Below are positions 28,207 to 62,058 of a DNA stretch of 64,000 nucleotides, one piece after another. The stretch comes from a virus, in IMG/VR virus record IMGVR_UViG_3300045988_171858; one strand, given 5' to 3'. Position 1 is the stretch's first letter. Every line of letters starts with the position of its first letter. The notes under the pieces are model-generated. The model was not told the DNA's origin. It did no database searches and was given only the letters and a program-made list of their open reading frames with translations. The translations under genes and the position numbers were made by a program.

Positions 28207-28473
28207 CAAATATGTTCAGTATCGTTCGCAAATCGACACCCGGGATTATACCCAGCTCTATATCACTATAGAGTTCAGACTATATCTTCATCCGTATTAA
28301 ACGGAGCGTAACATTTCGAACGCCATAAGCTTGCGTCCTACGCCTCTCGGCTAGTCGTTGAACCTTGAATCCATAAAAGGAAACCTTGGCTGCTGATTGT
28401 CTCGTATGTTGAGAGTTCCCAGCAATTAATTACGTTTGCTATTGTATATTACTATACAAAGGGGCAGTCATTT
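28207..28473 (-). mobile_element. group I intron (family 1, 267 nt, no ORF) in nrdA
   Basis: On the - strand: 5' splice site GGU|AAAUGACUGCCC (P1 GGGU/GCCC), P AAUUGCUGGGAA, Q AAUCAGCAGCC, R GGUUCAACGACUAGCC, S GAAGAUAUAGUCUGAAC, terminal G before GGC. The exon-1 frame stops 2 codons into the intron. Confidence 0.85.
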
Positions 28474-29361
28474 ACCCTGGCTACAAGAAAGTGCACTATA
28501 CTCGATAGATTTAGCATGATAAAGAGCTCCACTGTTTACAGCAGCACCATTTCTGATTGATGCATTGCGCTCTCTTAATTTGGATGAACCAATACCAAGG
28601 CCCGCGCCCAGTGTTGCATATTTACGGGCAGCAGTTGCCGCTTCGCCAATCGAATCGATAGAATCATCAGTTTCAATCAGGACACATGAACTAAAACTAC
28701 GAGTAGGTTTCCTCAAATTTGCAATATGAGGAGTGGGAACATTTACCCGGCCAAGAGACATATTGTCATAATGCTCTTTAACAAAGCTTAGACGATCTGT
28801 ATAAGCATCGCCTTTATCGTTGATAAAGTACATCATAGCTGCAACCATATACGAAACTTGTGGAGTCTCGTAATATTCTTTGGTTTTAGCATTCTTGGCT
28901 AAGTATTTAGCTTCCCATTCAACCGCGCCGGAGATAGAATACATCATATCCCTATTGTGGTCTATTTGTTTATTCAGCCATTCAATTTCTTCTTCAGAAT
29001 ACTTCTCAAGAATAATCTTGTCATAAACACCAAGCTCTGTATTGTGTTTAATAATTTCATGTAAATGTTTAGGCTCAAAATCACCATAAACATATTTGCG
29101 CATATTACAAAGCAAGATGCGGCCGGCAACAATAGCATAATCAGGATGCTCTTCATCAATCAAATTGTTAGCACTGGTTAACAATGCCCCATTGATTTCT
29201 TCGGTAGTGATCCCATCGTAAAACATAATGTTGCTATTGACAGCAATTTCAGAAACAGAAACGTTGTCTAATCCTGCACATACAAAACCAAGAAAGGAAT
29301 TGATACGTTCAGGGTTATAAGGGACAACGTCACCGTTACGTTTGGTAACGTTGAATCCCAT
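28474..29361 (-). CDS. nrdA: ribonucleotide reductase class Ia large subunit, exon 1
   Basis: N-terminal ATP-cone-like region (VTKRNGDVVPYNPERI) and an RNR body ending ...YSALSCSQG. Confidence 0.9.
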
Positions 29362-29362
29362 A

Positions 29363-29677
29363 TTAAGCCTCTTCCAAGTTCAGTGCCTTAACAAGCTCTA
29401 CAACTTTAGCACGGAGGTCTTTAAATTCTACATGCTCATAAGAGCCTGTATCATCACGATCAATGAAGATTTGAGGAACAGAACGAGGTTCAGGTTTTCC
29501 CATTTCTTCGAATCGTTTTTTCAGTTCTTCCATTTCTGTTTTACCGGCATCAACATAAGTCTTTTCAAAATAGAATCGCTTATGCTTGTCGATATATTTG
29601 GTACCCAGGCCCTCCAGAATGGCAGTAGCCTGAACACATTGCGGGCAATTGGATTTGGAATAAATCAAAACCTTCAT
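29363..29677 (-). CDS. glutaredoxin/NrdH-like redoxin
   Basis: CPQC active site at aa 11-14 and a VPQIFI motif. Lies between nrdB and nrdA. Confidence 0.8.
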   Translation of the reverse strand: MKVLIYSKSNCPQCVQATAILEGLGTKYIDKHKRFYFEKTYVDAGKTEMEELKKRFEEMGKPEPRSVPQIFIDRDDTGSYEHVEFKDLRAKVVELVKALNLEEA

Positions 29678-31698: not shown

Positions 31699-31759
31699 AC
31701 TAGCTATTCCTTTTTGTAATTATAATAGTAGGAACATCTTAATTGCAACAAAGCAATAA

Positions 31760-32400
31760 GGTCGGACGAAAATGTCCGCTCGGATCCGGCAGCATGCCGG
31801 ATCTGCAGTCACCCCCGGGCACGGGGGCCCAACATCTGCGAAGCACGGTGTTGGAATCTTCTCAGAAACGAACCTCAGTTCGTAGAAGGTTGGGAATAGC
31901 ATGTACTCCCACAGCTAGTTTTTCTTTTAGAAAAAATAAAGATATTAATGAGCCTCAGCTCATATAAGGCCGGAAGGAAAACTTCCGTCACCGGGCGCGT
32001 CCGCGGCCGTGTGATCAGCTCCGCCAGGCAGCGCCGGGCGGGCGCATTATTTTACCAAAATAATGCAATACAATATTAACGGACCTCAATCCATTTTAAG
32101 GCAGAAGACTATAAGGTTATCCCAGCTGTCAATCACAACTGATGCACCGCACATCTTCTACATTTTAGCAGGCGCTAAAATGCATTTATTTGAATCTACC
32201 CAAAGCGTAGATTCAAATGTCTAAGTATAATCACTCTTAAGTGACAAAGACCGGAAGGCAAGCTTCCGTGCCGGAGCAGAGCCCACGGGATCTGGCCGGC
32301 ACCTACAGCATCAGGCTGCCCGAATTTCGCAGAAATTTGGATGGTGTTATAACGATCCTTAAATCGTAGTTGCCGACTCTGCCCTGGTCGGCCCGGGTTA
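31760..32400. other. GC-rich, hairpin-dense non-coding island (candidate structured RNA or mobile remnant)
   Basis: No ORF of 60 aa or more that fits the gene context. At least 12 stable hairpins are listed in the findings. The strand is uncertain. Confidence 0.5.
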
Positions 32401-32486
32401 TAAAGGAAATTTCATTATGACTTTAGAATTTATGAAAATTAAATCTAAAAGGTTATGGAGCTTAATCCATCGCCGCAATTAATCTT

Positions 32487-40406: not shown

Positions 40407-40675
40407 CAATTGTTACCCTAGAGGCTTTTTATCCTCTAGCTCTATGGATACTTTACACTCTCCATAGTTCGGCATATATTTTCTTCCCATAGGGAAGGCG
40501 GACACTCTTGGGCGGATTATATTCTCTAACGAGTTTCACCGCCTATGCTCTACAATGGTTTAAGATGTTAACCTTAAACTTATCTCGGTATTAGGAACAC
40601 AAGGCAAATCCTTTCACCGATTTTGCCCACTGATAATCTAATATATTACTATACTAGACGCCTCGCATTATTCAA
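40407..40675 (-). mobile_element. group I intron i7 (family 2, ~269 nt) in dnaE
   Basis: P AAAUCGGUGAAAGG, Q CUAAUACCGAGAU, R GUAGAGCAUAGG, S GAAAAUAUAUGCCGAAC, 3' end GGGUAACAAUUG|UCG. P1 pairs AUGCU (exon) with GGCGU. Coordinates +/-2. Confidence 0.7.
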
Positions 40676-40683: not shown

Positions 40684-40980
40684 CAAATATGTTCAACCTC
40701 ATTCGCAAGTTGAGGTCCGTTATTAATAACTGCTCTATGTTTCCATAGAAGTTCAGACTATATCATATCCTCCGGCATTATCCGGTAAGGCACCAATAAG
40801 GTGTCTACATAGAGGAATAAATCCACTGTAGAATTCCCATTTTCAGACATCATAAGCTTATGCCTTACGCTTTTCAGCTAGTCGTTGAACCTGTCCGTAG
40901 ACGTGGCTGCTGATTCCCTAAACGGGTTCCAGCAATTAACGGGATTATCATTTGTATATTTCTATACAAAGGCGCCAATG
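40684..40980 (-). mobile_element. group I intron i6 (family 1, ~297 nt) in dnaE
   Basis: Closely resembles the nrdA intron: UUUGUAUAGAAAUAUACAA, P UUAAUUGCUGGAAC, Q GGAAUCAGCAGCC, R GGUUCAACGACUAGCU, S GAUAUGAUAUAGUCUGAAC, 3' end GAACAUAUUUG|. P1 pairs GCGU with GCGC. Confidence 0.75.
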
Positions 40981-41107
40981 ACGCATACCTCGCAAACTCC
41001 AGGAGCTCTTCCCAGAATTGCGCTACTTCTTGTTTATCTTCACCATTGGCCACTGCACCATTGATGAAGTCCTCTCTGAGTGATGCCAGTTTGGCTGCAT
41101 CTTTTTT
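40981..41107 (-). CDS. dnaE: dnaE C-gene exon (KKDAAKLASLREDFINGAVANGEDKQEVAQFWEELLEFARYA)
   Basis: Matches the DnaE 'gKKk...m...F..Ga..nG......if..i..FagY' region. Confidence 0.8.
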
Positions 41108-41351
41108 CAATTATGTTATCCCGCCGGCTTTTTATCCGGCAGTTCTTATACTCCATATTCGTATAAGTTCGGCGTACATTTTCATCCCATTGGGATGTCG
41201 AACACTCTTGGAGATATTATATCTTTTCAATCTCTACGCTCTACGGTGGTTTACAGTTCCTGTAAACTTACCTCGGTATTAGCATCTCAGCCTTCACCGA
41301 TTTTGCTCGATACACACTGCATCATTACTGAAGCAGGGGGCAATTAAAATT
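41108..41351 (-). mobile_element. group I intron i5 (family 2, 244 nt) in dnaE
   Basis: 5' splice site GGU|AAUUUU, P AAAUCGGUGAAGG, Q CUAAUACCGAGG, R GUAGAGCGUAGAG, S GAAAAUGUACGCCGAAC, 3' end GGGAUAACAUAAUUG|AAA. Confidence 0.75.
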
Positions 41352-41422
41352 ACCAACAGCCTTTCTTAAAACATCAGCTTTAATATCAGAGAAGCCGCAC
41401 ATTTCTTTTGATAATCGGAGGA
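41352..41422 (-). CDS. dnaE: dnaE C-gene exon (..LRLSKEMCGFSDIKADVLRKAVG)
   Basis: Matches the DnaE '..aGfs..eaD.lRrAmgKK' region. In frame only when joined to the flanking exons. Confidence 0.75.
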
Positions 41423-41700
41423 CAATTTGTTATCCCAAAGGCTTTTTATCCTTTGGCTCTATATCTACTTTTGCTCTCGATATAGTTCGGCATACATTTT
41501 CACCATATTGAAAATCAACTTAGGTGCCGGCCACTCGTGGAATCATTATATTCTCCATTGGAGTTTCAGATTCTATGCTCTACGATGCTCCGCGTCATTT
41601 AAATGCGAAGTTATCTCGGTATTAGGATAAAAGCAAAATCCCTTCACCGATATTGGCCAGTAATAATAAAAAGTATTTCTACTTTAAACGTCCCTCTTAG
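41423..41700 (-). mobile_element. group I intron i4 (family 2, ~278 nt) in dnaE
   Basis: P AAUAUCGGUGAAGGG, Q CUAAUACCGAGAU, R GUAGAGCAUAGAA, S GAAAAUGUAUGCCGAAC, 3' end GGGAUAACAAAUUG|. The 5' boundary is uncertain by a few nt. Confidence 0.7.
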
Positions 41701-41839: not shown

Positions 41840-42091
41840 CAGAAATGCAATACAACGGTATCTGGTATTTCTATCAGGATTGGACTATCTCATCACCATA
41901 TCAAATGACTTAGGTGTCGGGCGCTGTATCTGGTAATTAAGAACACTATAGTTCTCCAGTAGTCTCTGCACCTTCTTATGGTGTACCATAAGCTTGGCTC
42001 AGGATTGCCTTATCTTAAATTAAGACTTAGGTTTCCCTGAGTTCACCCGATTTTAACCTAACTGTTTCCAATTAGGGCCCCAGACCGCTTT
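41840..42091 (-). mobile_element. group I intron i3 (family 1-like, 252 nt) in dnaE
   Basis: 5' splice site CCU|AAAGCGG with P1 GCCCU/GGGGC, R GUGCAGAGACUACUGG, S GAUGAGAUAGUCCAAUCC, terminal G before GGACCG. Confidence 0.75.
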
Positions 42092-42338
42092 AGGGCGATA
42101 TGTACTAACAATTACTGCAATATCATGAATCGTTTTGGGTTTACAGGCATTAACAAATCCAGACATACCTGCCTCTTCAAATTGAAAGATACCATAGTTC
42201 CTTTCATTCCAAAGAACCTTATACGCTGCCTCGTTGTCCATTGGTAAATTATACCAATCAATATCAATGCCGTGACGCTTCTTAATCAGCTCTCTTGCAA
42301 AGTTAAGAACTGTAAGCGTCTTTAACCCAAGGATGTCT
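42092..42338 (-). CDS. dnaE: dnaE C-gene exon (DILGLKTLTV...GIFQFEEAGMSGF...VSTYRP)
   Basis: Contains the DnaE motifs 'KmDfLGLk.L' (completed across the splice junction) and 'GvFQlES.gm'. The frame was checked against ORF 42053..42241. Confidence 0.85.
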
Positions 42339-42606
42339 CAAAATTTTGTATAATCAATACAAGGGTGGGCTTTTTATCCCAACCGTCCAGACTTCTTTTT
42401 AATCTGGTTTGGCATACTTTTTCAACCGTTCTGGTTGCACCGGCCTCGTGGGGATATTATATTCTATTTAAATAGGTTCAATCCCTATGCTCTGCGCCTG
42501 ACTAAATTTTTAAATCTAGCCTTCGGTCTCGAGTTAGCATCACAGCCTTCTCGCTTAATTCCGGTGTGATAATCCATAATGTTCCCACTATGGACGCCAG
42601 ATATCT
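42339..42606 (-). mobile_element. group I intron i2 (family 2, 268 nt) in dnaE
   Basis: Close relative of the recA intron: GGAAUUAAGCGAGAA, CGAGACCGAAGG, R GCAGAGCAUAGGG, S GAAAAAGUAUGCCAAAC, 3' end ACAAAAUUUUG|AGAC. Splicing gives VK-L-DILGLK. Confidence 0.8.
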
Positions 42607-43547: not shown

Positions 43548-43800
43548 CGTTTATGTTCAGTATAGGTCGTTAATCTATACCCGGTACAAAACCAGCTCTA
43601 TGTCGCCATAGAGACCAGACTATCTCATCACCATGTCCATGAGGATTTAGGTGCTCTGCGCTTCGAACCACTTGGCCCTACATAATAGTCGTTACACGTC
43701 CTTCGCTTTCGCAAAGTTTCGCACGGTATTGTCTTCTAGAGAGTTTCACCGTTTTCACAGAGTTTTCTGTTGTCAATTTCTTGACAAAGGGACTATTTTA
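43548..43800 (-). mobile_element. group I intron i1 (family 1-like, 253 nt) in dnaE
   Basis: 5' splice site GGAU|UAAAAUAGUCC (P1 GGAU/GUCC), R GUGUAACGACUAUUAUG, S GAUGAGAUAGUCUGGUC, 3' end GAACAUAAACG|AUU. Splicing gives GGGFPD|IDSDVE (the PDxDxD catalytic motif). Confidence 0.8.
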
Positions 43801-44061
43801 ATCCGGGAAGCCGCCACCAACAGTATGAACCTTACCGGTCGGCGGGGTTGTTACGATTCCGAGTAGATAAGCAATAGAAGAATTAGCCTCATTATCCTCA
43901 ATATTTCTAACACTCGCATTATACAGATTCAAATAATACGAATCGATATGATGCAATTCACAATGATTCAATTCGAACATAATATTTGCTTTATGCTCTT
44001 TGAACCAATCGGTATCAGAATAAGAAAGAACTAACTCTCTTAAGTTTTTATGCTCAGCCAT
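43801..44061 (-). CDS. dnaE: dnaE C-gene exon 1 (divergent duplicate of the palm segment)
   Basis: The likely start is the ATG at 44061, which overlaps the upstream stop (AAATGGCTGA). It ends ...SSIAYLLGIVTTPPTGKVHTVGGGFPD. The ORF track opens at 44145. Confidence 0.6.
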
Positions 44062-48882: not shown

Positions 48883-50697
48883 TTATTTTCTTTCTGTAGT
48901 AAGCCACTCTTTTAACGGGTAGCCTTTAATTTCGATAACCGGCAATTTTGCGCGTCCGGCATTAAGGTAACGGCTGAACATTAGCCCGTATGGGATAGGA
49001 TCAATAGCGGTAATACCTAAAGCATAGGAGAGCAATGAGCCCGCGGCGCTATTGTGAACCATACAAACATTAGTCCTAAAAGAACAATCCTCGTCAACCA
49101 TAAGGTCATATACCCTTACCGGTTCATCTTCATTATAGAAGCTAGACAACTCAAAATTGTCTATTGAATCCATTTTGTAATCTTCAACCTTAGACAAAAT
49201 ATCGTCAGGTAAAGTTCCCCTATCTAGTGTGTGTATTTGCTTGTCCAATTCGATAGCGGGAATGAATCCATGTTTTTTAGTTTTAACTTTATGGTCTTCT
49301 GTTAAATGCATCATACCATATTCAGTTTCAAGGGTAATCATTTCCCTATAATCTACAATATGTTTGGTAGTATGATACACAGACTTCCATCGGTTATTAT
49401 GGGTCCAAACCATATCTCCGACTTTGACAAATTCAATCGGACAATAATAAATGGCGCCGGCCCTATTGATTAGAGCCTTAGTCCCCTCAAATAGACACCC
49501 ACGACCAGGACCAATCATAATACCTTTAGCTTTAGCCTCATCAAGAATCTCTTGCAAGACCAAAGGATAAGAACTGAAACCCATCTTAGAGTACATATCA
49601 AGCTCTTCTTCAAGTCTATCGAAATAAACCTTCTTCTGTTCGTCAGAAAGCTTTTTAGAATATTCAGAATACCATTGCATGGCTCTGCCTCTCAATACAG
49701 AGTCAGGGTCAGCATAAGGAGCAGGGAAGATAATATCCTCATTCTTAGGCAAGGTTACATTACACATCTCTGCAATTTTATTTGTATTTGCAAAAGCCTC
49801 TGCATCTTCAGGATGAGAGTAATACTCTTCAACCAATACATGATGCGGCTTAACATAATACTGGCTAGGCTGATAGAACATAGAGTTGCTATCAACGTCG
49901 GCATCTTCTTTGCTCGAGTCAGTCAGGCCGGCAGCTTTTACCGCCTTATTGATTTGACCGCCAGTATTAACCATAACTAATTTAGCATGGCTATCAGATT
50001 GCCAAGGATATACATAGTGGCTATCACATGTGATAACCATAGGAATATTATGCTTCTTGGAGATTTCAACCAAATTCTTATTGGCAATATCCTGCTCTTC
50101 AAGGCCGGTATAAGTTTTCTCCAAATAGAATCTGTCACCAAAAATCTCCTTCAGCTTTAATGCAATCTGTTCGGCTTCTTCCGGTTTGCCATCCAAATAC
50201 AGCTGGTTAATAGGTCCGCCCAAACAAGCAGACGTACAAATCAAGCCTTCATTGCACTCTTCAAGAAGAGCTAAATCAAAACGCGGCTTATAGTATTTGT
50301 AACGAGTCCAGGCAATAGAGGTAGCTTTCATAAGGTTACGATAGCCCTGCTCATTAATAGCGATAAGCAGAATATGATAGTTAGCTTTATAGCCTTCTAT
50401 CTTTTCCTTAATAGAGCCAGAATGAAGAGTCATGTATCCTTCATTAGCAAAAATTGGCTTAATACCATGCTTAGCGCAAATTTTAGCTTGCTCATGATGG
50501 CCAATCATATTGCCATGTTCAGACAAACACAAACCCTTCATTCCAAGAGCCTTAACACGTTCACAATACTCTTCAAGCTTACCAAATCCATCCAAAGGAC
50601 TATAGATACTATGAGCATGCAGATTCGTATACATCCCGACATCTTCGGGTTTAATATCGCCATTTGGATTTTCGGGAGTGGACACAAATTCCATCAA
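48883..50697 (-). CDS. dnaE: DNA polymerase III alpha-type polymerase, N-gene (PHP domain plus start of palm) with mini-intein
   Basis: PHP motif NLHAHSIYSPLDGFG, then ...GPGRG[intein]SAAGSLLSYALGITAIDP..FSRYLNAGR. It continues into a degenerate LPVIEIK in place of PDxDxDF and stops. Confidence 0.85.
   Translation of the reverse strand: MMEFVSTPENPNGDIKPEDVGMYTNLHAHSIYSPLDGFGKLEEYCERVKALGMKGLCLSEHGNMIGHHEQAKICAKHGIKPIFANEGYMTLHSGSIKEKIEGYKANYHILLIAINEQGYRNLMKATSIAWTRYKYYKPRFDLALLEECNEGLICTSACLGGPINQLYLDGKPEEAEQIALKLKEIFGDRFYLEKTYTGLEEQDIANKNLVEISKKHNIPMVITCDSHYVYPWQSDSHAKLVMVNTGGQINKAVKAAGLTDSSKEDADVDSNSMFYQPSQYYVKPHHVLVEEYYSHPEDAEAFANTNKIAEMCNVTLPKNEDIIFPAPYADPDSVLRGRAMQWYSEYSKKLSDEQKKVYFDRLEEELDMYSKMGFSSYPLVLQEILDEAKAKGIMIGPGRGCLFEGTKALINRAGAIYYCPIEFVKVGDMVWTHNNRWKSVYHTTKHIVDYREMITLETEYGMMHLTEDHKVKTKKHGFIPAIELDKQIHTLDRGTLPDDILSKVEDYKMDSIDNFELSSFYNEDEPVRVYDLMVDEDCSFRTNVCMVHNSAAGSLLSYALGITAIDPIPYGLMFSRYLNAGRAKLPVIEIKGYPLKEWLTTERK
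49051..49497 (-). mobile_element. mini-intein (149 aa) in dnaE N-gene
   Basis: GPGRG|CLFEGTKALI.., block B LTEDHKV, and blocks F/G VYDLMVDEDCSFRTNVCMVHN|SAAGS. Confidence 0.85.
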
Positions 50698-51702: not shown

Positions 51703-51997
51703 CATTTTGTTATCGCAGAGCTTTTTATCTCTGCTTCTGCATCATTACAATGCAGTTCAGCATACTTTTTCACCATATCCAAAGGACTTAGGTGTAGCGG
51801 CCTCGTGGAAGCATTATATTCTATTATTAGTTTCAGCTTCTATGCGTTGCCCCTGACTGGGCCGTTAGACCAGCCTTCGGTTCGAGTTGTCCTATCTAAG
51901 AGGGAGGATTTTCTCGCTTAATTCCGCTATTATAATTCATAACGTTTCCGCTATGAACGGCAGATATAATCACTTAAGTAGTTGATTTATATACATT
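51703..51997 (-). mobile_element. group I intron (family 2, 295 nt, no ORF) in recA
   Basis: 5' splice site GGU|AAUGUA, GGAAUUAAGCGAGAA, CUCGAACCGAAGG, R GCAACGCAUAGAAG, S GAAAAAGUAUGCUGAAC, 3' end GAUAACAAAAUG|GGA. Splicing gives QTTPG|GKAIPFY. Confidence 0.85.
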
Positions 51998-53203: not shown

Positions 53204-53497
53204 TTATTTCTCTATTTCAGGCGAATCAGAAAAACGTTCAGACATCTTGATTAGAACATGAACCTGAAGCATTAGTTGCAATCCGAAATTGTCCGGATGG
53301 GCAAGGCACATTTTCTCAACCTCGAAGCTGTCATTGTAATTAAATTTAGGAATGTTTCCGTCAATCACTATATGTGCAAGCGAAAAGACTCGCAGCAAAT
53401 TAGCAACAGATAAAATAAACTCGGCATTAGTCGGACTTTCTTCTTCTACGACCTCGTTTAGTCTTCCCAGTATCTTCTTTATCTTCTTCACATCCAT
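53204..53497 (-). CDS. hypothetical protein (~97 aa)
   Basis: The ORF opens at 53584. The ATG at 53497 is preceded by GGAGAG. The 5' part overlaps the ruvC-like gene. Confidence 0.55.
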   Translation of the reverse strand: MDVKKIKKILGRLNEVVEEESPTNAEFILSVANLLRVFSLAHIVIDGNIPKFNYNDSFEVEKMCLAHPDNFGLQLMLQVHVLIKMSERFSDSPEIEK

Positions 53498-54002
53498 TTT
53501 GTATTCTCTCCATTTGCAAACCATAGGAAACGGCAACAGCAACAGCATCAGATTCATCGTAATTGTTGAAGGTGAAATCATCAATATTCACGACAAAATT
53601 TTTTAATGCCGACTGGACTTCATTTTTGTCTGCCCTTCCCGAGCCGGTAATTATTTTCTTGACTGTTTGGGGAGCAATTACGTCGTAACTTTTATCAAGT
53701 CCGCGTATAATATGCCCCTTATATAATCCAGCCAGTTCAGCCAAGTCTGTTAGACGGCCGGGAGAACCAAAACTATAGTTTTCCAATACAAAGAACTTAG
53801 AGTCCTTAATTGGAGTAAAGGACTCTGTTGCAAAGATAAAGCATTCCAAAGATTCCAATTTTTTGTTGAAACCTTTTGTTCTCGGGTTCGGCGCGATTGA
53901 CTTGATATCAATCAAATTGAATTTGCCTTCCCCTAGATATTCAACTACTGCCAACCCTGTATTGGTGACAGATAAGTCAATACCACAAAAATAAACACTC
54001 AT
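53427..54002 (-). CDS. ruvC: RuvC-like Holliday junction resolvase
   Basis: N-terminal CGIDLSVTNTGLAVVE and C-terminal DESDAVAVAV acidic motifs. Confidence 0.8.
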   Translation of the reverse strand: MSVYFCGIDLSVTNTGLAVVEYLGEGKFNLIDIKSIAPNPRTKGFNKKLESLECFIFATESFTPIKDSKFFVLENYSFGSPGRLTDLAELAGLYKGHIIRGLDKSYDVIAPQTVKKIITGSGRADKNEVQSALKNFVVNIDDFTFNNYDESDAVAVAVSYGLQMERIQNGCEEDKEDTGKTKRGRRRRKSD

Positions 54003-54764: not shown

Positions 54765-54796
54765 GTTAATATCTTTCTGTTTGAATTGGTGTTGCC

Positions 54797-54952
54797 CTAT
54801 TCTATCGTTTGCATAAAGATATCATTATACAAAAGACGAATTATCTCAAGGAATTCTTTGTTCAAAAGCAGTGATGTCGGAACAATAAGATCCGTCTCAT
54901 GGCATCTCCTATTCCATAAATTATCTTTCCACACAACCGTATCGTAGATCAT
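54797..54952 (-). CDS. possible small ORF (51 aa)
   Basis: ATG-initiated ORF, below the ORF-track threshold, that fills an otherwise empty 220-nt gap. No other support. Confidence 0.3.
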   Translation of the reverse strand: MIYDTVVWKDNLWNRRCHETDLIVPTSLLLNKEFLEIIRLLYNDIFMQTIE

Positions 54953-54984
54953 AGTCCTATCGACATGATGGTAGTCAAGGTTGA

Positions 54985-55326
54985 TTAAAAATGGAAATTA
55001 TTATGCCTCCATCCAGTATCGTCCACATCGTTCTCTTTCATAAAAAGATAGAGGCAATAGTATGCCTTCATCGCATTGGACGGCTCAAGCATCCTTCTAG
55101 GCTCTTTTCTGTGGATTTCGAAAGGAGGAATGGTAAAACGAATATATGAACAGTTGCTGCTAAGCTCAATAACATCAAAAGGCAAATGCATTCTGCTAAG
55201 TTCTAAAAATTCATAAATCTCAAGGCAGAATTCCCATGTATAATCTTTATCTGAAAACTTGAAATTCATTCCAGATATTTGAGACATTAGAGTTAAACTC
55301 AGGCGCCTTAGCAAAGGAGGAATCAT
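54985..55326 (-). CDS. hypothetical protein (113 aa)
   Basis: ORF only. Confidence 0.6.
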   Translation of the reverse strand: MIPPLLRRLSLTLMSQISGMNFKFSDKDYTWEFCLEIYEFLELSRMHLPFDVIELSSNCSYIRFTIPPFEIHRKEPRRMLEPSNAMKAYYCLYLFMKENDVDDTGWRHNNFHF

Positions 55327-55376: not shown

Positions 55377-55730
55377 TTAGTTAATACCAGAAGCCATCAA
55401 AATGCGGTCCATAATGCTTGGAGCTTGCGGATTGATTTTAGAGAGAATAGTAGATTTGACGACTTCCAATGCACCAATCGCCTCATGACTTCCCCATTGG
55501 CCTTCAATCGAAAAGGAAATTGAACCATTCTTTTCCACAATTACGATTGTTTTTTGAACAGGCTGAGGAGCCTCTTTTACTTTCTCTCGGCCATCCTTAT
55601 CGGGAGAATAGTCCGGGTCTTTATCAAACACGACACTTTCTTTTTTGGGGAATGTTTCGGCAAATACCGGGCCGCTAGTTTCCATAACTTCACTTTCAGT
55701 TGTTTGATCAACATCTTTATATTTAATCAT
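55377..55730 (-). CDS. hypothetical protein (117 aa)
   Basis: ORF whose start overlaps the upstream stop by 1 nt. Confidence 0.65.
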   Translation of the reverse strand: MIKYKDVDQTTESEVMETSGPVFAETFPKKESVVFDKDPDYSPDKDGREKVKEAPQPVQKTIVIVEKNGSISFSIEGQWGSHEAIGALEVVKSTILSKINPQAPSIMDRILMASGIN

Positions 55731-56590
55731 TACTCTCTCCGTAGTATAAATCGGATTTTATCTGAATCTGAAATCAATGCAAGCTTAACCAAGGAGCATA
55801 CATCCTTAAAGGATATATGTACGCCTTCACTTGGGTCTTTAACAATATTGCCCGGATAAACAGTAATACGCTGACCATTGTTTGATTCCAACACGACAGA
55901 TTCCATTAGCTTGAGGGATTTGCCTAATCCAGGGTCACTCAACTTCATAGAATCAATCATACGGTCGATCATCTCATCAACTTGAAACGAAACTTCGGTT
56001 CCGTCTGCTGTTTCCTGGGCCACAGAGAACGTTGTAGGCGCATCATCCGGCCGGACATATGGTTGCTCAGGTTTAGCCTCTGCAGGGGCTTCCTGCTCAT
56101 TCTGAGGGGCCTCCTGAACAACTTCCTTTACAGGCTCCTGTTTAACTTCTGGTTGCTGCGCCTCTTGGGCTTGCTGTTGAGGTTGGCTGTGTTGAACAAG
56201 GCTTGGATACCATTCAGAGAATTTAGCCGCAATCTTCTGGACGCAATTCCATAACATTGCCTTATCAGAAACCAAACAATGCGGCAAGGCATAGTGGGAA
56301 ATAGGCTCCGACAAAATGCAAACTGCAACCTTTTGTGCATCGTCTGCAAAGTCTTTGATAAAGGTATATCCAGGATAGCCGCGCTCTCTGGACAAAGGCA
56401 TAGTAACCTTGCCGGACGTTTCATTGAAGCAAAGAAAAATCGACTTACCAGAAACATTTAAATCTTCAGATTCAACATCAATTACACGAACAAATTCCGG
56501 ACTAATATTAGCCAAGGAAAAAATGCGTTTAATTGCCTCAGACTCTTGAGAAGTCACGCGCTTACTTACTACATAAATTATATTGTGCAT
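55730..56590 (-). CDS. hypothetical protein with Gln/Pro/Glu-rich linker (286 aa), coupled to the RT gene
   Basis: GAGGAA Shine-Dalgarno sequence within the 22-nt spacer between the RT stop and this start. Linker QHSQPQQQAQEAQQPEVKQEPVKEVVQEAPQNEQEAPAEAKPEQ. Confidence 0.7.
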   Translation of the reverse strand: MHNIIYVVSKRVTSQESEAIKRIFSLANISPEFVRVIDVESEDLNVSGKSIFLCFNETSGKVTMPLSRERGYPGYTFIKDFADDAQKVAVCILSEPISHYALPHCLVSDKAMLWNCVQKIAAKFSEWYPSLVQHSQPQQQAQEAQQPEVKQEPVKEVVQEAPQNEQEAPAEAKPEQPYVRPDDAPTTFSVAQETADGTEVSFQVDEMIDRMIDSMKLSDPGLGKSLKLMESVVLESNNGQRITVYPGNIVKDPSEGVHISFKDVCSLVKLALISDSDKIRFILRRE

Positions 56591-56612
56591 ATTGTTCCTC
56601 TAAAATCTGAAG

Positions 56613-58151
56613 TTATTCCTGACGGTCAATATAAAGGGCATCCAAGAAATCTTTCTCAAAAGAGAATACCGAAGCAGTATGTTTTTTAGTGCCATTGGAG
56701 AATTCTTTAACAAGGCCGACGGACAAATGGACTTTGCCGCCTTCCTCGTAAACATTTGTAGTCCACATTTTGTAACCGGAAGGATTGTCCGCAATAAACA
56801 TTTCAGCAAATTTGTCTATCGCCGCATATAGCTCTTGATCTTCATCATCACTATCACGCCCGTAAGGCCATCGGTAATTGATTGGAAGATTTTTAGCCAT
56901 AATGCAGATATCTTTATAGCTCAATCCGGTTGGGTCAAAGATATCCTTGTCCATTTTTAAATCCAATTCACCGGCAACCAATTTATCCCAAAGCTTACAC
57001 TTATCGTCAAAATAGGAATGCAAAATGATATCTGGATTGAACAATACCGAAATGTCACTATTAATACGAATTGCGTAGTCAATGATGCCCTTTTCGGAAG
57101 GCGTATATTCACGGCGTTCTTTGACAATGTCAAGACATTTTTTACGACTCTTAGAATCAACCTTCGAGTAATGGCGGGCAGTGAAATCAAAGACTTTACG
57201 CTTGCCAAGGGTAGAATACTCAAATTTAGAGTCATCAGCTTTGGGATAGAAGTATTGCGTCTTTTTATAATTCAAGTAGAGGCCGCCCTTGTTTAAGGCT
57301 TTTTCAAATTCAGCATAAATAGCCTTAATATCATGTTCCCTGCCGGCAAGAATTAAATCATCCACATATACATAAACCCGCGAAGATGTAACACCCGCCA
57401 TAGCCTTATCAAAGTGATGAAAGATCGTATTGTACAAATGGTAATTCGCCAACTCATTCGCATATCTCGCACCAGTAGGAACGGCACCATTGTGAAAGAG
57501 GCAACTCAAAAATGCCCACAATCCAATTTCAAGGCGCTCAAACTTTTTGTGGTCTTCCAGTTCGAATTTGCATTCGCTGAACAACGGAAGATTTTTAATC
57601 AAAAATGTTTTAGGTGCAAGCTGCATTACCTTTTCAAATCTTACAGATTTAAAGAAGGCAGAAATATCCGACTTAATAACCATTTCATTGTAATTATTAG
57701 TCGCTACATGATTTGTATTGTGGATATTGTGCATAAACCGTAAATTTGGAGTCATCCAACGTAAGGTATTCCGAATACGATTATGAGCCCGTTTAATATT
57801 CTCACAATCATCTTCAGAAATCTTTTTGTTGATATAACAAACCTCACGGCCTTTATCTGTCACAAAATTACGGAAAAGAAGAGTGTTATTGCAATTACCG
57901 ACAAAGTCAGCAAGAGTTTTAACCATTCTTGAGTATTCCTCAAAATCCGGAGTCAACAAGCCATTTACACCATTAAGGGATTCGATTGCCTTCAGGACAT
58001 CTTCCTTAGGTGTCTTGTTAAAAAGTTTCTCCGGGAATGTGGAATCAATATCGCATTCACCATCTTCAATTTTTTTGATGATGTCTAAAAATGTTTGGGC
58101 CAAATAAACAATTGGCGTAATGAACTCTAAATGAATATCTACTGCGTCCAT
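56613..58151 (-). CDS. reverse transcriptase (512 aa, unclassified lineage)
   Basis: RT motifs A (IKSDISAFFKSV), B (GAVPTGARYANELAN), C (VYVYVDDLILAG) and E (LYLNYKKTQ). Confidence 0.85.
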   Translation of the reverse strand: MDAVDIHLEFITPIVYLAQTFLDIIKKIEDGECDIDSTFPEKLFNKTPKEDVLKAIESLNGVNGLLTPDFEEYSRMVKTLADFVGNCNNTLLFRNFVTDKGREVCYINKKISEDDCENIKRAHNRIRNTLRWMTPNLRFMHNIHNTNHVATNNYNEMVIKSDISAFFKSVRFEKVMQLAPKTFLIKNLPLFSECKFELEDHKKFERLEIGLWAFLSCLFHNGAVPTGARYANELANYHLYNTIFHHFDKAMAGVTSSRVYVYVDDLILAGREHDIKAIYAEFEKALNKGGLYLNYKKTQYFYPKADDSKFEYSTLGKRKVFDFTARHYSKVDSKSRKKCLDIVKERREYTPSEKGIIDYAIRINSDISVLFNPDIILHSYFDDKCKLWDKLVAGELDLKMDKDIFDPTGLSYKDICIMAKNLPINYRWPYGRDSDDEDQELYAAIDKFAEMFIADNPSGYKMWTTNVYEEGGKVHLSVGLVKEFSNGTKKHTASVFSFEKDFLDALYIDRQE

Positions 58152-58206
58152 TTAACTTCCTTGAAAGTGAAAGAGCGGCCGACACATTTAATATGCCGGC
58201 CATCTA

Positions 58207-58815
58207 TTAGATAATTGCAATGTTTTTCAGAACAACTTCAACAGTCGGCATTGGAAGACAATTGAAATTAATACGAGCAGGAATAGAATCCGGTTGGCTC
58301 ATAAACGAGCATAACCAGTTGTGTCCAACAAGGGCAGCAGTATCATTTGCCACCAAGAATTGTTCTTCCAGAGCTTCATCGGTATCTGCCTCTGCACAAG
58401 AATACAGCTTAACTTCTTCTTCCTGAGTCAGAGTTTCCGGAGACATAGAAAAGAATTTCAATCTCCAGAATTCTTCATTTGTTGCTCTTCCATACGGCGT
58501 TGCAAACAGTTGGCCATGAGCCAGTTCATTGCCAATATCGACAATCCATCCGCTCATACTGAGAGAGTGGACCGCGCGGCGGGCATTTTGATTGTCCACC
58601 AAATTGAACACCACAACTTTATCGCAGTGTTCAATCATGCTGTTCAGAACACCAATATAGGTGAAATGGGCCGGATCAGAATTGGATTTCATTGTCAAAT
58701 ATTTATCCAGATATTGAACTTCAATATCCTTCATTACAGGGCCGTAACGCAAAGCCATAACTTCTGCTTTGTTACTGCCAATGTCCGGCTCAATAAAGTT
58801 CTGCCGAATCAAGTT
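58207..58815 (-). CDS. E1-like (ThiF/MoeB family) adenylyltransferase, exon 2
   Basis: Begins NLIRQNFIEPDIGSNKAEV, which is the second half of the 'D.D.V..sNL.RQ.....diG..Ka' motif. Confidence 0.75.
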   Translation of the reverse strand, partial: NLIRQNFIEPDIGSNKAEVMALRYGPVMKDIEVQYLDKYLTMKSNSDPAHFTYIGVLNSMIEHCDKVVVFNLVDNQNARRAVHSLSMSGWIVDIGNELAHGQLFATPYGRATNEEFWRLKFFSMSPETLTQEEEVKLYSCAEADTDEALEEQFLVANDTAALVGHNWLCSFMSQPDSIPARINFNCLPMPTVEVVLKNIAII

Positions 58816-60044
58816 CTTAGGTTCGCTTATTGTTACTCTTTGCCATTGATAAAAAGTTTTTATACTTTCTATCCAAATATATCTTAGAGTCTAAATAAAG
58901 ATAATTTAAAACTTTCAAAACATTGTCATTGCCAGATAAGGACAATTCATAACAACAGTTTTCTGTATTAAATCTCTTTTTAAGTTTTTTAGAAGTGGAA
59001 AATCCCATTGAGTTGAAAATCCCCATCAGGCCCAGAAGAAATTCTTCTGTTCCACATATCGTCATTGATGACCTGTAATAACCGTCATTATGAAGATATT
59101 TTCCAAAAGATCCATCGCCATCTATATAGCCTCTTATAAAATGCCTATAAAGAGAGCTATCGATTTCTGGGATTCTAAAGTTCACCGTTTTGTCTCTTAC
59201 AAAACCTAAAGACCTTAAACTGGAAATCATTTCCTTTGTCCCGAATGCGAATCTAGCAAACTTTGATTCTTTATCTAAGCTAAAAGAATTTCCAGTATAA
59301 AATTTTATACCCTTATTTATACCAATACTGCTTCTAATCTTTTCGATAATATCAATATCTTTAGACGATAGCGATATTATTATTTCCTTGTCAGAAACAT
59401 GACCGTCAGCAGCTATGAACCCAAGGGTATAGGCCTTTTCTTCAGTGTCAATTGAGGAAAAGTATTGAGGATCTTCGTAATTCTTATGGTTATAGTTGTA
59501 TCTTCCAGATAGATTATGCCTTCTAGCGAATGCATTTACATTTACTAAGGAACATCCGTATTTTCGGGCAACATCAATACTAGGAATGTTATTGCATATA
59601 TCTATCATCATGCAAATATTCTTAGATGACATATGCTTAAATCCAAGCTCTTTTATCCTTCTTTCTGCTGTTCTTTCCGAAACATCAAAAAACTTAGAAA
59701 CAAGACTCTTGTCTATATAACCATTGTAAGAGTTATTTTTAATGTACTCTAAAATATTTTGTTTTATTTTCATGTGTGCCCTAATAAAATTAATCAAGTC
59801 TATTTGACATGAAAAACATTATACGACACTATTTGGCAAATGGCAAGGTCGTTTCTGTTCCGCCTTGCTCTGTATCTCATATATGCATATTTCCGATACA
59901 GTACAGACTATCGCTTCACTATAAAAGTGTTCACCCGCATTAGTCGTTCACGCTGCACGAGAATGATCTCTGCTTGCGCCTTGTCTTCTGTTATGCCAGA
60001 GGTCCAAGTCAATTAGGGCAAATTTATACACGGCCGGTTAGAGA
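58816..60044 (-). mobile_element. group I intron (1229 nt) with LAGLIDADG ORF in the E1-like gene
   Basis: The core lies at the 5' end, with R GCGUGAACGACUAAUGCGG and S GAAGCGAUAGUCUGUAC. The ORF occupies the 3' kb. Terminal G at 58816. Splicing gives DGDTVNLN|NLIRQ. Confidence 0.75.
58817..59797 (-). CDS. LAGLIDADG homing endonuclease (326 aa, double motif, N-terminal HTH-like region)
   Basis: The two LAGLIDADG motifs are AYTLGFIAADGHVS and FIRGYIDGDGSFG. The stop codon ends 1 nt before the inferred 3' splice site. Confidence 0.8.
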   Translation of the reverse strand: MINFIRAHMKIKQNILEYIKNNSYNGYIDKSLVSKFFDVSERTAERRIKELGFKHMSSKNICMMIDICNNIPSIDVARKYGCSLVNVNAFARRHNLSGRYNYNHKNYEDPQYFSSIDTEEKAYTLGFIAADGHVSDKEIIISLSSKDIDIIEKIRSSIGINKGIKFYTGNSFSLDKESKFARFAFGTKEMISSLRSLGFVRDKTVNFRIPEIDSSLYRHFIRGYIDGDGSFGKYLHNDGYYRSSMTICGTEEFLLGLMGIFNSMGFSTSKKLKKRFNTENCCYELSLSGNDNVLKVLNYLYLDSKIYLDRKYKNFLSMAKSNNKRT

Positions 60045-60344
60045 ATTCAGGTTAACCGTGTCGCCGTCCACAAGGATCAAAGAGAACTTGTGTGACAGCA
60101 AATTCTTGCGCTTCATGTCATTGATGGTTTTAGCCAGCTTTGGAATCAGCCAAGAGCCTGTTCCGCCGCAACCAACCACAACAATTTTATCCAAAAGCCT
60201 AAAGGTTCGTGCAGATTCTTCACCGGAAAGCCTTTCCATCAGCTTTCCCGATTCATATTCTTCCACGCCTTTTTGATGAGCGTCAATTTCTTCCTGAGTA
60301 GAAAGGAACTCGATGATCTTTCCACGAATAGATGTTCTTTCCAT
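60045..60344 (-). CDS. E1-like (ThiF/MoeB family) adenylyltransferase, exon 1
   Basis: ATG at 60344 (AAGGAAAA SD) lies 14 nt after the JAB stop. Rossmann loop KIVVVGCGGTGSW. Ends LVDGDTVNLN. Confidence 0.75.
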
Positions 60345-60357
60345 TAATGATTTTCCT

Positions 60358-61284
60358 TTAAAATTTTTCCAGATAAGCAGCAATACGCTCAGGCAGGCAT
60401 AAATATTTAATGCCGTGAGCATCAAGCTCTTTCGACAACGGATTACTGCTCGTAATAAACGAGTCTTCTACGGCAAAAATAGAGGATGCAAGCGCAATAC
60501 ACAATGCTTTTGAAGGGTCTGCAATTTTATCAATACCGCTTCTCTCACCGGAGTGGATATCCGAAATTGATTCTACCAAATTCGACATAAAAATTTGCAA
60601 GCCGGACGAGAATACGCGGTACGGATGACCTTCAGGCAGCTCGATCGCATTGATAAAATCAGAAGCGGCAGCTTCAATTTGTTTAAACTCTTCATCGGCA
60701 TACAGAAGAGTGTCATATGGTTTATAAAAACCGCGAAGAATAGACGAAATCCAATGATACTTCGCTTTGTCCGCAGCTGCCTCGTTCCCGAGGGTCCAGT
60801 TATCCTCTACATCGCTAGGAGTTACAACTTTAGCATTTGTACCACCAGCAACATTATTCCAATGATCATAGTGGCCATAGTAAGGATAATCCCCATAGCC
60901 GGCGTAGTAATCATAATCTTCAACATCGCCGCCATAATAGTAGTCTTTGACTTTGGAGACGTTTGCCGCTGGCTTGCCGCCCGTGCTAGGAAACCCTTTC
61001 GATTTTGTCTTGTCATAATTGCCATACGCTCCATAGTTATAGACCTTAGCTTTAACTTTTGCATAGTCTTCTTCGGGAATTTCGAACAAGAATTCGCAAC
61101 CTTCGGTAAATTCGAAGATGTCTTCCAGAGCCAAAGGAATCAATGCATCAGCACAGCAAACGCGTTGAACGGTTTTATATGTAAAGGTATTGTCGGCAGT
61201 ATTGTTTACCAAATTGCCAAATACAAACGAGTAAATGCCGTGTTTGCCTTTCTCGTCTGAGTTGTCTGTGCCGGAATAGAATGC
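60358..61284 (-). CDS. JAB/JAMM-domain protein, exon 2 (rest of the JAMM motif, Tyr/Gly/Asp-rich linker, C-terminal domain)
   Basis: The frame extended upstream of the ORF-track start reads AFYSGTDNSDEKGKHGIYSFVFGNL.., supplying the Sx2D part of the motif. Confidence 0.75.
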   Translation of the reverse strand, partial: AFYSGTDNSDEKGKHGIYSFVFGNLVNNTADNTFTYKTVQRVCCADALIPLALEDIFEFTEGCEFLFEIPEEDYAKVKAKVYNYGAYGNYDKTKSKGFPSTGGKPAANVSKVKDYYYGGDVEDYDYYAGYGDYPYYGHYDHWNNVAGGTNAKVVTPSDVEDNWTLGNEAAADKAKYHWISSILRGFYKPYDTLLYADEEFKQIEAAASDFINAIELPEGHPYRVFSSGLQIFMSNLVESISDIHSGERSGIDKIADPSKALCIALASSIFAVEDSFITSSNPLSKELDAHGIKYLCLPERIAAYLEKF

Positions 61285-61590
61285 CTTTTTACTATTCCTC
61301 TTACGTTTAGGTTCGACTAACCTAAATCCGCCCTTTCGGTATTGAGATTGTTACGTCATCTCGCGGTGTGGGACTATATCATCACTGATTGTTATCAGTG
61401 CCTTGCGCTTCGGGGCACATCCCTACTCTACTCGATTCTATGTAATTAATTACAAAGTCTTTCGATAGTCTCTGATCGTCCCTTACAGATAAATTATATT
61501 CATCTATTAAGGTTTCGATGCTGATTGCCCTAGACAATTTGTCCTTAAGGGTTTCCAGCAATTCACAAGGTTTTAAATGGGCACATGTTT
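61285..61590 (-). mobile_element. group I intron (family 1, 306 nt, no ORF) in the JAB gene
   Basis: 5' splice site GGU|AAACAUG, P GAAUUGCUGGAAAC, Q GGCAAUCAGCAUC, R GAUCAGAGACUAUCG, S GAUGAUAUAGUCCCAC, 3' end AGUAAAAAG|GCA. Confidence 0.85.
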
Positions 61591-62058
61591 ACCCATTGTA
61601 TGATGTGAGTGTGATGTCAATACCAACACTTTATTAGGGTCATCATACCAACCGCCAGTTCTTTGATAAGTGATAGACGCACCGGCAACTTCTTGTTCTG
61701 GGACCTCAACGAGATACTTCTGCTCTTCTTTATCCCACCAGATTTGGGCCATCACTTCATTTTTGTTAGTTTCATAAATCTTGCGATAGAAACGGATAAT
61801 TCCGTAGAACAATTCGCCAGGAATCTTTGGAATTTCCAATGATTGGGTGAAACTTTCAGACATCTGAGGCATACCAATCATTTTGGTTTTAAAGCTTTCT
61901 GCCTTAATCCAGAAATCACCAATAGTGGCGCGGACCAGTTTGTAGACACCATCTTCAGCGACAATAGAATCGCCATCTTCAGCTTCTTCTTTCGTCTTTA
62001 CAATCTGCGGCACACGAAAATCCATTTCGGCCATCAGGTCTTCAATGCTTAAACTCAT
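61591..62058 (-). CDS. JAB/JAMM-domain protein, exon 1
   Basis: Conserved Glu (KNEVMAQIWW) and HSHHTMG at the exon end. The frame stops 5 codons into the intron. Confidence 0.8.

Follow-up and report, generated by a model that had tools for sequence, protein, structure and literature searches.

The subject of this analysis is a gene for a reverse transcriptase (RT) in a 64,000-nt stretch of viral DNA (IMG/VR record IMGVR_UViG_3300045988_171858; the whole stretch is referred to as the window), together with the genes that accompany it. A preliminary description of the region, made from the sequence alone, had reported a 512-aa open reading frame (ORF) carrying RT motifs, a 286-aa ORF that follows it after a 22-nt spacer containing GAGGAA, and an E1-like gene directly upstream of RT. 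All of these are present, the two ORFs exactly as described and on the minus strand, and the upstream gene is E1/ThiF-like. Thirty RT-bearing loci (labelled L0xx) were fetched, and their ORFs were compared with the proteins of the window. The elements of what is called here the JAB-E1-RT-p286 cassette, and of its immediate borders, are the following.

56613..58151, minus strand: RT gene (512-aa ORF, RVT_1 match, catalytic residues and AlphaFold2 (AF2) model)
56591..56612, minus strand: RT-p286 spacer of 22 nt, which reads CTTCAGATTTTAGAGGAACAAT and holds the GAGGAA Shine-Dalgarno sequence
55730..56590, minus strand: p286, conserved partner protein (286-aa ORF, AF2 model)
55377..55730, minus strand: p117, a small, moderately conserved ORF, the start of which overlaps the p286 stop by 1 nt
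58156-58162, minus strand: Shine-Dalgarno sequence of RT, AAGGAAG
58163-58174, minus strand: U-rich tract after the hairpin
58174..58205, minus strand: terminator-like GC-rich hairpin with a stem of ~12 bp (from folding, with pairing kept between clades)
58207..58824, minus strand: exon 2 of the E1/ThiF-like adenylyltransferase gene (tblastn of residues 98-296 of the intact L009 orthologue; 5' boundary approximate)
60039..60344, minus strand: exon 1 of the E1/ThiF-like gene (tblastn of L009 E1 residues 1-102; GCGGTGS nucleotide-binding loop, of the GxGxxG type)
60358..62058, minus strand: JAB/JAMM peptidase-like gene (exons 62058-61601 and ~61351-60358)

The reverse transcriptase and its neighbours

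The RT gene is real and intact. Its product matches the Pfam family RVT_1 over residues 133-307 (40.8 bits, with respect to a gathering score of 29.6 bits; E = 2.6e-10), and the four motifs quoted in the preliminary description are all found in its translation, namely SDISAFFKSV (motif A), VPTGARYANELAN (motif B), YVYVDDLIL (motif C) and LYLNYKKTQ (motif E). A word-indexed search of 5.8 billion proteins returned 15 homologue clusters with 255 member sequences (36-98% identity, on contigs of at most 182 kb); in PHROGs only a weak 'polymerase' family is matched. In the alignment of 16 close homologues D162 of motif A, P225-T-G227 of motif B, Y262-V-D264-D265 of motif C and LYLNYKK of motif E are invariant, and D162, D264 and D265 are still so once relatives of 20-25% identity join the alignment (21 broad homologues). 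No truncated or interrupted copy is found among the full-length cluster representatives. The ratio of nonsynonymous to synonymous divergence (dN/dS) is 0.115 with respect to the nearest relative without synonymous saturation, a value that, from this one relative, is indicative of purifying selection. The enzyme is predicted to be catalytically competent.

The AF2 model of RT (predicted local distance difference test, pLDDT, 82.8; predicted template modelling score, pTM, 0.70) is composed of an N-terminal helical domain (residues 1-92), fingers and palm (~93-305), a thumb-like helical region (~333-392) and an extra C-terminal alpha/beta domain of ~110 aa (~400-512). The most conserved stretch of the protein is an N-terminal block, DFVGNCNNTILFRNFVTDKGREVCYINK (residues 82-109), which in our reading of the alignment would correspond to RT motifs 0/1 preceded by a family-specific signature. 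With this assignment, the N-terminal extension, initially put at ~150 aa, is reduced to ~80-90 aa. The C-terminal extension of ~170 aa is indeed present, but the statement that it could not be assigned is superseded, as it is modelled as the thumb-like region and the extra domain. Synonymous variation in the DFVGNCNNTILFRNFVTDKGREVCYINK block is normal (0.21, versus 0.23 overall), so that what is constrained is the protein, rather than an embedded nucleic-acid element.

Every RT context examined is a related phage contig, the long ones being of ~120-190 kb, and the RT cluster members at NCBI are annotated as metagenome-assembled genomes of 'Bacteriophage sp.', with many contigs of 180-189 kb. 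The other genes of the window encode tail proteins, a primase-helicase, a ribonucleotide reductase, a DnaE-type polymerase, RecA and RuvC. No copy of RT was found in 185,579 species-representative cellular genomes, which is consistent, if only indirectly, with the lytic lifestyle attributed to the phage in the preliminary description. Searches of the GenBank phages revealed no cultured relative: RT gave no match by megablast and tblastn, and the best match of the window DnaE was to Bacillus phage G, at 35% identity.

The order p239, JAB, E1/ThiF, RT, p286, p117, ..., RuvC, p172, RecA is the same in all 24 loci of the first set, and the cassette lies inside a replication/recombination block of the phage. 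In the deepest lineages homologues of JAB, E1 and p286 flank RT with E values from 1e-18 to 1e-83 (E1 in L026, L059, L060 and L062; p286 in L025, L026, L059 and L060), and in all the lineages examined, to an RT identity as low as ~21%, E1, RT and p286 are neighbours. By comparison of these loci the cassette is vertically inherited and restricted to this phage group. In L040, a more distant phage, the p172-RecA pair is present, with neither RT nor p286 within 9 kb upstream. Throughout the block RT is always the least conserved gene, and the fastest-evolving: with respect to the L008-type clade the identities are 25% for RT, 39% for p286, 47% for E1, 52% for JAB, 60% for RuvC and 70% for RecA. 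Its dN is the highest among the genes of the block, and its dS with respect to the closest relative, L003, is 0.74, about twice that of the flanking genes (0.20-0.43); the raised dS suggests allele exchange between lineages or a locally different mutation.

The earlier proposal that RT may belong functionally to the E1 cluster gains strong support from the adjacency of E1, RT and p286 everywhere and from the overlaps of their stop and start codons. The RT and p286 genes share 8 nt in L002, L006, L012 and L014 and 1 nt in L020, L024 and L060, and elsewhere are 1-49 nt apart. p286, which is found only in this phage group, directly follows RT in every locus with that flank present, and is 68-97% identical where RT is 36-86% identical. 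Its AF2 model comprises a well-modelled flavodoxin-like alpha/beta domain (residues 1-133), in which many polar residues are invariant, a disordered Q/P/E linker (135-185) and a beta-rich C-terminal domain (190-286). For the latter, a weak but recurring match to Formyl_trans_C, the tRNA-binding domain of Fmt, is obtained with 7 of 16 members (best E value, 0.019).

The E1 gene is interrupted in the window, by an intron-like insertion with a homing-endonuclease-like ORF that the preliminary description had overlooked; in L009, L012, L015, L017, L021 and L022 it forms one uninterrupted ORF (300-393 aa), and at the site of the insertion relatives carry a short ORF-less gap, a homing-endonuclease gene or nothing. 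Exon 2 also matches ThiF, PRTRC_ThiF (7.9e-18) and, over their E1 part only, the Cap2-type E1-E2 models (2e-10) of cyclic-oligonucleotide-based antiphage signalling systems (CBASS). The JAB-like protein, the intact orthologues of which are of 458-505 aa and uninterrupted in several relatives, has the HxH...S..D motif and matches PRTRC protein A (9.6e-13), with Prok-JAB matches in relatives. The arrangement recalls both type II CBASS, with Cap2 (E1-E2) and Cap3 (JAB), and PRTRC, with ThiF and protein A, in that E1-like and JAB proteins are encoded side by side, near a nucleotidyl-transferring enzyme. However, here the neighbouring enzyme is an RT, the cassette contains no cGAS/DncV-like nucleotidyltransferase (CD-NTase) and nothing recognisable as an E2 domain, and the neighbours scanned include neither ParB nor any further PRTRC protein; the scores are also below the curated cut-offs (PRTRC_ThiF, 64.7 versus 144.75; PRTRC_A, 48.1 versus 101.8). 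The PRTRC cassette belongs to plasmids and to integrative and conjugative elements, and comprises ParB and proteins B-F besides ThiF and protein A. Membership in CBASS is not indicated by JAB, which has no PADLOC match; no PADLOC model is matched by p286, p239 or p117 either. A substrate with a conserved C-terminal glycine was not found: p117 was considered as a ubiquitin-like substrate and discarded, its C-terminus being only partly conserved, with '...SG-IN' kept only in close clades.

The E1-RT spacer is of 55 nt in the window and of 52-61 nt across the loci with the hairpin. The preliminary description, which saw no retron-like inverted repeats flanking the gene, had overlooked this conserved terminator-like hairpin adjoining RT upstream. 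Its folding energy is −20.8 kcal/mol in the window (z −4.2) and −17 to −21 kcal/mol across loci (z −2.7 to −5.8). Pairing is kept in clade-specific stems (GGCCGGCA/TGTCGGCC, CTCAGGCG/CGCCTGAG, GCCTGCAC/GTGCAGGC and GCCCTG/CAGGGC), and within close clades four pairs of the stem are changed on both sides. The U-rich tract is predicted to be able to pair with the AAGGAAG Shine-Dalgarno sequence of RT, and could in this way block its ribosome-binding site. Only loci in which E1 and RT overlap or lie almost end to end lack the hairpin, as L021, L025, L059 (4-nt overlap) and L060 (4-nt gap). We read the hairpin as a probable terminator or attenuator that would hold RT expression low.

Relation to known reverse transcriptases

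An exhaustive HMMER search of 1.84 billion protein representatives yielded only 15 proteins with E ≤ 1e-3, of which only 3 reach E ≤ 1e-30, so that the RT family appears to be very isolated. No description of the family or of the JAB-E1-RT-p286 cassette was found in the literature; one database homologue, DAD60149.1, already bears the name 'reverse transcriptase'. With PADLOC about two dozen RT models match the window RT without a clear winner, those of retron type VI, UG10, Drt3a, CRISPR-associated RT and UG36 giving ~1e-11 each, and the matches to the retron models cover the palm only. Among the NCBIfam models retron_St85_RT is the best match of four RTs out of the five scanned. On the window RT it reaches 26.6 bits (cut-off, 235 bits), the group II model TIGR04416 is marginally ahead with 34.3 bits (cut-off, 300 bits), and Drt3a gives 21.3 bits (cut-off, 200 bits).

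When the AF2 model of RT was compared with the PDB by Foldseek, the top matches were the retron RTs Eco2, Ec86 and Eco8 (E ~4e-6, 12-14% identity), followed by DRT9, diversity-generating retroelement (DGR) and group II RTs and, clearly weaker, by Abi-P2, DRT4, UG15 and DRT6 (2e-4 to 5e-4 for Abi-P2, DRT4 and UG15); no close viral structure was found in BFVD. A profile built from the broad alignment and searched against all PDB sequences gave retron RTs as the twelve best matches (2e-19 to 7e-12), with Cas6-RT-Cas1 and DRT2 at ~1e-10, group II RTs at ~1e-9 and Abi-P2 and G2L4 at ~6e-5. Furthermore, among the distant RT relatives (P00xx labels), P0017-P0027, proteins of 458-678 aa, share the N-terminal signature with the window RT, and their palms match best the retron RT models of PADLOC, with values of up to 1e-34.

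Retron RTs are distinguished by NAXXH upstream of motif A and by VTG in motif 7. At the alignment positions that we take to be equivalent, placed from the Ec86 motifs, NAXXH is not conserved (HNTNH in the window RT, with differences in close relatives) and motif 7 of the close family is S-x-L-G and not VTG. The basal phage relatives P0024, P0026 and P0027 keep YADD, and have HAxxH where retron RTs have NAXXH and I(A/V)G in place of VTG. The use made previously of YVDD, as opposed to YADD, as an argument on class is not tenable: the residue before DD varies across the RT superfamily (YADD, YVDD, YLDD, YMDD and YIDD) and is thus uninformative.

With the retron RTs (Ec86, Ec78/St85, Ec67, Ec83 and Eco8), which provide the best profile and fold matches and with which palm and thumb align, the window RT shares the pairing with accessory proteins, in its case E1, JAB and p286. 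It differs from them in the extra N-terminal helical and C-terminal domains, in having no adjacent msr/msd, in the loss of NAXXH and VTG from the close family, with scores far below the curated cut-offs, and in its location in a replication block of large phages rather than in bacterial defence islands. Its partners are not known retron effectors: p286 is strictly co-inherited and translationally coupled by codon overlap, but matches no known effector or domain.

Of the unknown-group/defence-associated RTs (UG/DRT), those of class 2 (Drt3a/UG3, DRT2, DRT9, UG10 and UG36) reach comparable PADLOC scores of ~1e-11, the Drt3a match extending to part of the N-terminal region, and DRT9 and DRT2 are among the structural and profile matches. 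DRT2, DRT3 and DRT9 use an upstream ncRNA (non-coding RNA). The window RT has no such RNA, and its context is one of phage core genes: whereas location in defence islands or prophage hotspots would be expected of a UG/DRT member, RT is fixed in the phage replication block at all loci. Assignment to one of these groups finds no ground in the matches to UG10_small, Drt3a and UG36 (~1e-11), which are partial and no better than those to the retron and CRISPR-RT models. DGR RTs (bRT/Avd) are also phage-encoded and their fold is among the structural matches, but the window RT has no pair of template and variable repeats (TR/VR), no Avd-like partner and, in its motif B, no SQ signature. The motif B of DGR type is [LIV]GxxxSQ. 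AbiK, Abi-P2 and DRT4, which have the RT fold and stand alone, share with the window RT the extra domains and the lack of an RNA partner; the matches to them are much weaker, and the window RT keeps a thumb-like region in its AF2 model.

By taking these comparisons together, RT is best described as belonging to a lineage derived from retrons or sister to them, and to no curated family, as far as sequence and predicted fold can tell, and the family is not a retron, a DGR, a group II intron or a catalogued DRT. The term 'orphan' used in the preliminary description is therefore an overstatement, given that a nearest family exists, that of the retron RTs, along with conserved protein partners. Robust clustering inside a known class with a partner element elsewhere, which had been indicated as the outcome that would contradict the early view, is not observed, as RT falls beside the retron class and in no curated family.

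Search for an RNA partner and other elements of the window

The preliminary description had seen no DGR TR/VR pair, group II intron RNA or retron-type msr/msd beside RT, and all the searches made here agree with it. In the window Rfam detects, at gathering scores, only five group I introns and nothing further at E ≤ 0.5, and a local scan around RT at E ≤ 5 gave only chance-level matches; group II intron RNA, in particular, had no match at either threshold. No tRNA genes are present in the window. No TR/VR-like repeat is found within the 64 kb, in which all repeat families map to intron-like elements. Consensus folding of the 260 nt upstream of RT yielded no covariation beyond the terminator-like hairpin, so that a retron-like structure considered there was discarded; nor is there an msr/msd, only 52-61 nt being available upstream of RT, taken by the hairpin. 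An element embedded in RT or p286 was not detected, synonymous variation being unsuppressed throughout (0.13-0.30 per 30-codon window). A dedicated RNA, if RT uses one, is not encoded next to RT.

Each nearby gap of apparently non-coding DNA has another explanation. In relatives, the 135-300 nt that separate a '106-aa ORF' from the ThiF ORF, considered as a possible ncRNA, are the E1 intron, since several loci have E1 uninterrupted in one ORF. Between RuvC and p172 a gap constant at 225 nt is occupied by a small protein gene that overlaps the RuvC 3' end and is conserved at the amino-acid level, and the 220 nt at 54765-54984 belong to the p113 gene, as its frameshifted tail; the frameshift could be due to a sequencing error, to programmed shifting or to p113 being a pseudogene.

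53204-53500, minus strand: small protein gene (MDVKKIKK...SPEIEK), overlapping the RuvC 3' end in another frame and missed by gene callers in most relatives
54765-55326, minus strand: p113 gene, with an apparent frameshift (two reading frames are needed to align it with the L003 orthologue)

An ORF-free, GC-enriched block of 788 nt is found upstream of the nrdB-like gene (31699-32486, minus strand). Its minimum free energy (MFE) is −283.9 kcal/mol, versus −224 ± 7.8 kcal/mol for shuffled sequences (z −7.7), and it is built of three tandem units, each closing with a similar hairpin, ACGGAAGnTTnCCTTCCGGyCTT. It matches no Rfam family; its sub-modules are 70-92% conserved in different relatives, and the length of the gap varies from 143 to 865 nt between genomes. 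At 32367-32396 (minus strand) lies a 28-nt element, CCCGGGCCGACCAGGG(n)AGAGTCGGCAA, which is invariant and single-copy within barely alignable non-coding DNA. It is present in L041-L047, L050, L051 and L058, the RTs of which are only 39-54% identical. The block was considered as the RT template and rejected, as the 28-nt element is absent from the L008-type clade, which keeps RT, and no link to RT emerged.

The load of selfish elements in the window (group I introns, inteins and homing endonucleases) is unusually high. The intron-like elements are listed below; neither the insertion in E1 nor the element in RecA is recognised by Rfam as a group I intron.

58825..60038, minus strand: intron-like insertion of ~1.2 kb in the E1 gene (boundaries approximate)
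58817-59797, minus strand: 326-aa LAGLIDADG-like, homing-endonuclease-like ORF in the E1 insertion
61352-61600: group I intron in the JAB gene (Rfam, 74.9 bits), inside the HxH...S..D JAMM metal-binding motif
28256-28483, 40733-40990, 41861-42101 and 43596-43810: four further group I introns, in the nucleotide-metabolism/polymerase region
51706-51973: 268-nt element splitting the RecA gene, with repeat families shared with 40410-40525, 41114-41554 and 42394-42604 in the polymerase region

The RecA gene of some relatives has no interruption, and that of L003 contains an intein. Intein-like blocks, C...VHNS and C...TGNC, were read by eye in the DnaE-type polymerase fragment (48883-50697) and in the NrdB-like protein (29674-31698, minus strand), and Intein_splicing Pfam matches are found in the DnaE and RecA of relatives.

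Possible role of the cassette

The interpretation that we favour, with a probability of about one half, is that RT is an intact enzyme of retron-type ancestry and a member of a JAB-E1-RT-p286 cassette of benefit to the phage, with the RNA supplied in trans, p286 as obligate partner and E1 and JAB as possible regulators or modifiers. RT would be made at a low level while the infecting phage is in its phase of DNA metabolism, together with p286, the translation of which would be coupled to its own, and would most likely copy an RNA supplied in trans. The latter assumption is favoured because the core of RT is nearer to template-dependent RTs than to Abi-type (abortive infection) enzymes and because no cis RNA was found. 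The template may be a transcript of the phage, an ncRNA that the phage encodes elsewhere, or an RNA of the host, for instance a tRNA. The product would probably be a short DNA serving the phage, in its DNA metabolism or in neutralising host immunity, and p286 may bind or process the RNA or the DNA product. The E1/JAB pair could plausibly modify or regulate one of the components, by analogy with the control of CD-NTases by Cap2/Cap3 in type II CBASS. The benefit to the phage could be either in replication/recombination or in counter-defence, with the data pointing both ways: fast RT evolution and the raised dS lean to a role in conflict, the fixed place in the core block to one in DNA metabolism.

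Several observations weigh against this interpretation. No template RNA was identified by the Rfam, upstream folding, repeat and synonymous-rate scans. The identity of p286 is not revealed by any significant match to Pfam, PHROGs, PADLOC, NCBIfam, PDB sequences or, with Foldseek, structures. The terminator-like hairpin separates E1 from RT in most lineages, and the whole p239-RecA block is syntenic, so that adjacency alone is no proof of a functional coupling of RT with E1/JAB. The position of RT as the fastest-evolving gene of the block fits a role in host interaction or conflict no less well than a housekeeping one.

Among the alternatives, the one that survives best, while still judged unlikely, is that the cassette is a phage-carried system of immunity or superinfection exclusion, in which a rival phage or a satellite would be sensed by RT, the effector would be p286 or a different protein of the cassette, and E1/JAB would have the regulatory part that Cap2/Cap3 have in CBASS. 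The nearest RT homologues are in fact defence RTs (retrons, DRT3a, DRT2 and DRT9), E1 matches the Cap2 models of CBASS, an RT with accessory proteins recalls the tripartite layout typical of such systems, and the dN and dS values of RT are those of a gene in conflict or exchanged between lineages. However, the cassette is fixed in the core replication/recombination block down to ~21% RT identity and not in a variable hotspot, none is found in cellular genomes, the usual home of such defence systems, and a cis ncRNA is absent, unlike in retrons and class 2 DRTs. Furthermore, p286, JAB, p239 and p117 are without a PADLOC match, and no domain resembling a toxin is recognisable.

Improbable, and more so than phage-carried immunity, is that RT is a template-independent, possibly protein-primed, DNA polymerase, which like AbiK, Abi-P2 and DRT4 would make random or homopolymeric single-stranded DNA. 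Such an activity would account for the missing RNA partner, and it is in keeping with the invariant threonine of motif B (PTG), which replaces the glutamine that templated RTs carry there (PQG), with the extra N- and C-terminal domains and with the presence of Abi-P2, DRT4 and UG15 among the structural matches. These folds, however, rank well below the best ones (2e-4 to 5e-4 versus 4e-6), the profile match to Abi-P2 is 6e-5 versus 2e-19 for retron RTs, and the thumb-like helical region is kept after motif E in the AF2 model. Abi-type enzymes have a helical repeat domain in place of the thumb.

A conventional retroelement with an overlooked partner, be it a DGR with a distant TR/VR, a group II remnant or a canonical retron, is very improbable and, as far as cis partners are concerned, largely refuted: the window represents 64 kb of a genome of ~185 kb and the placement of RT nearest to retrons would fit, but TR/VR-like repeats are absent from these 64 kb and SQ from motif B, group II RNA is not detected at E ≤ 0.5 and the group II model reaches 34 of the 300 bits of its cut-off, NAXXH and VTG are absent from the close family, and no room for msr/msd exists upstream. 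Least credible of all is that the RT-fold protein is decaying or has no catalytic activity and has been retained for a structural or a regulatory task, as might be suggested by RT being the least conserved gene of the block, given the catalytic residues invariant over very deep divergence, the purifying selection and the intact state of the full-length representatives.

The favoured interpretation, that of a trans-supplied RNA and a phage benefit, may be taken further, in a form that is speculative and that we hold as doubtful. The JAB-E1-RT-p286 cassette would be a phage retroelement system of a new kind, the retron-derived RT of which has lost its cis RNA and uses a template in trans, with E1/JAB controlling or chemically modifying RT, p286 or the product, for subverting immunity or for replication. 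Candidate templates in such a system are host tRNA or structured ORF-free RNA modules, such as the block upstream of nrdB. As precedents for such a control, Cap2/Cap3 prime cGAS-like enzymes, and E1-like enzymes such as TcdA act on tRNA.

To our knowledge, prokaryotic RTs outside mobile retroelements are understood almost solely as weapons of bacteria against phages, in the form of retrons, DRTs and Abi systems. The RT described here, related to those of retrons, is found on the side of the virus, as a selectively maintained gene of widespread large phages of the human gut. If RT makes DNA from RNA during infection, DNA viruses of bacteria would be shown to employ reverse transcription in a new way, and a natural retron-type enzyme without a cis-encoded RNA would be relevant to the genome-editing tools based on retrons. 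If the link with E1/JAB also holds, ubiquitin-like conjugation in the conflict between phage and host would be joined to reverse transcription, two processes so far unconnected.

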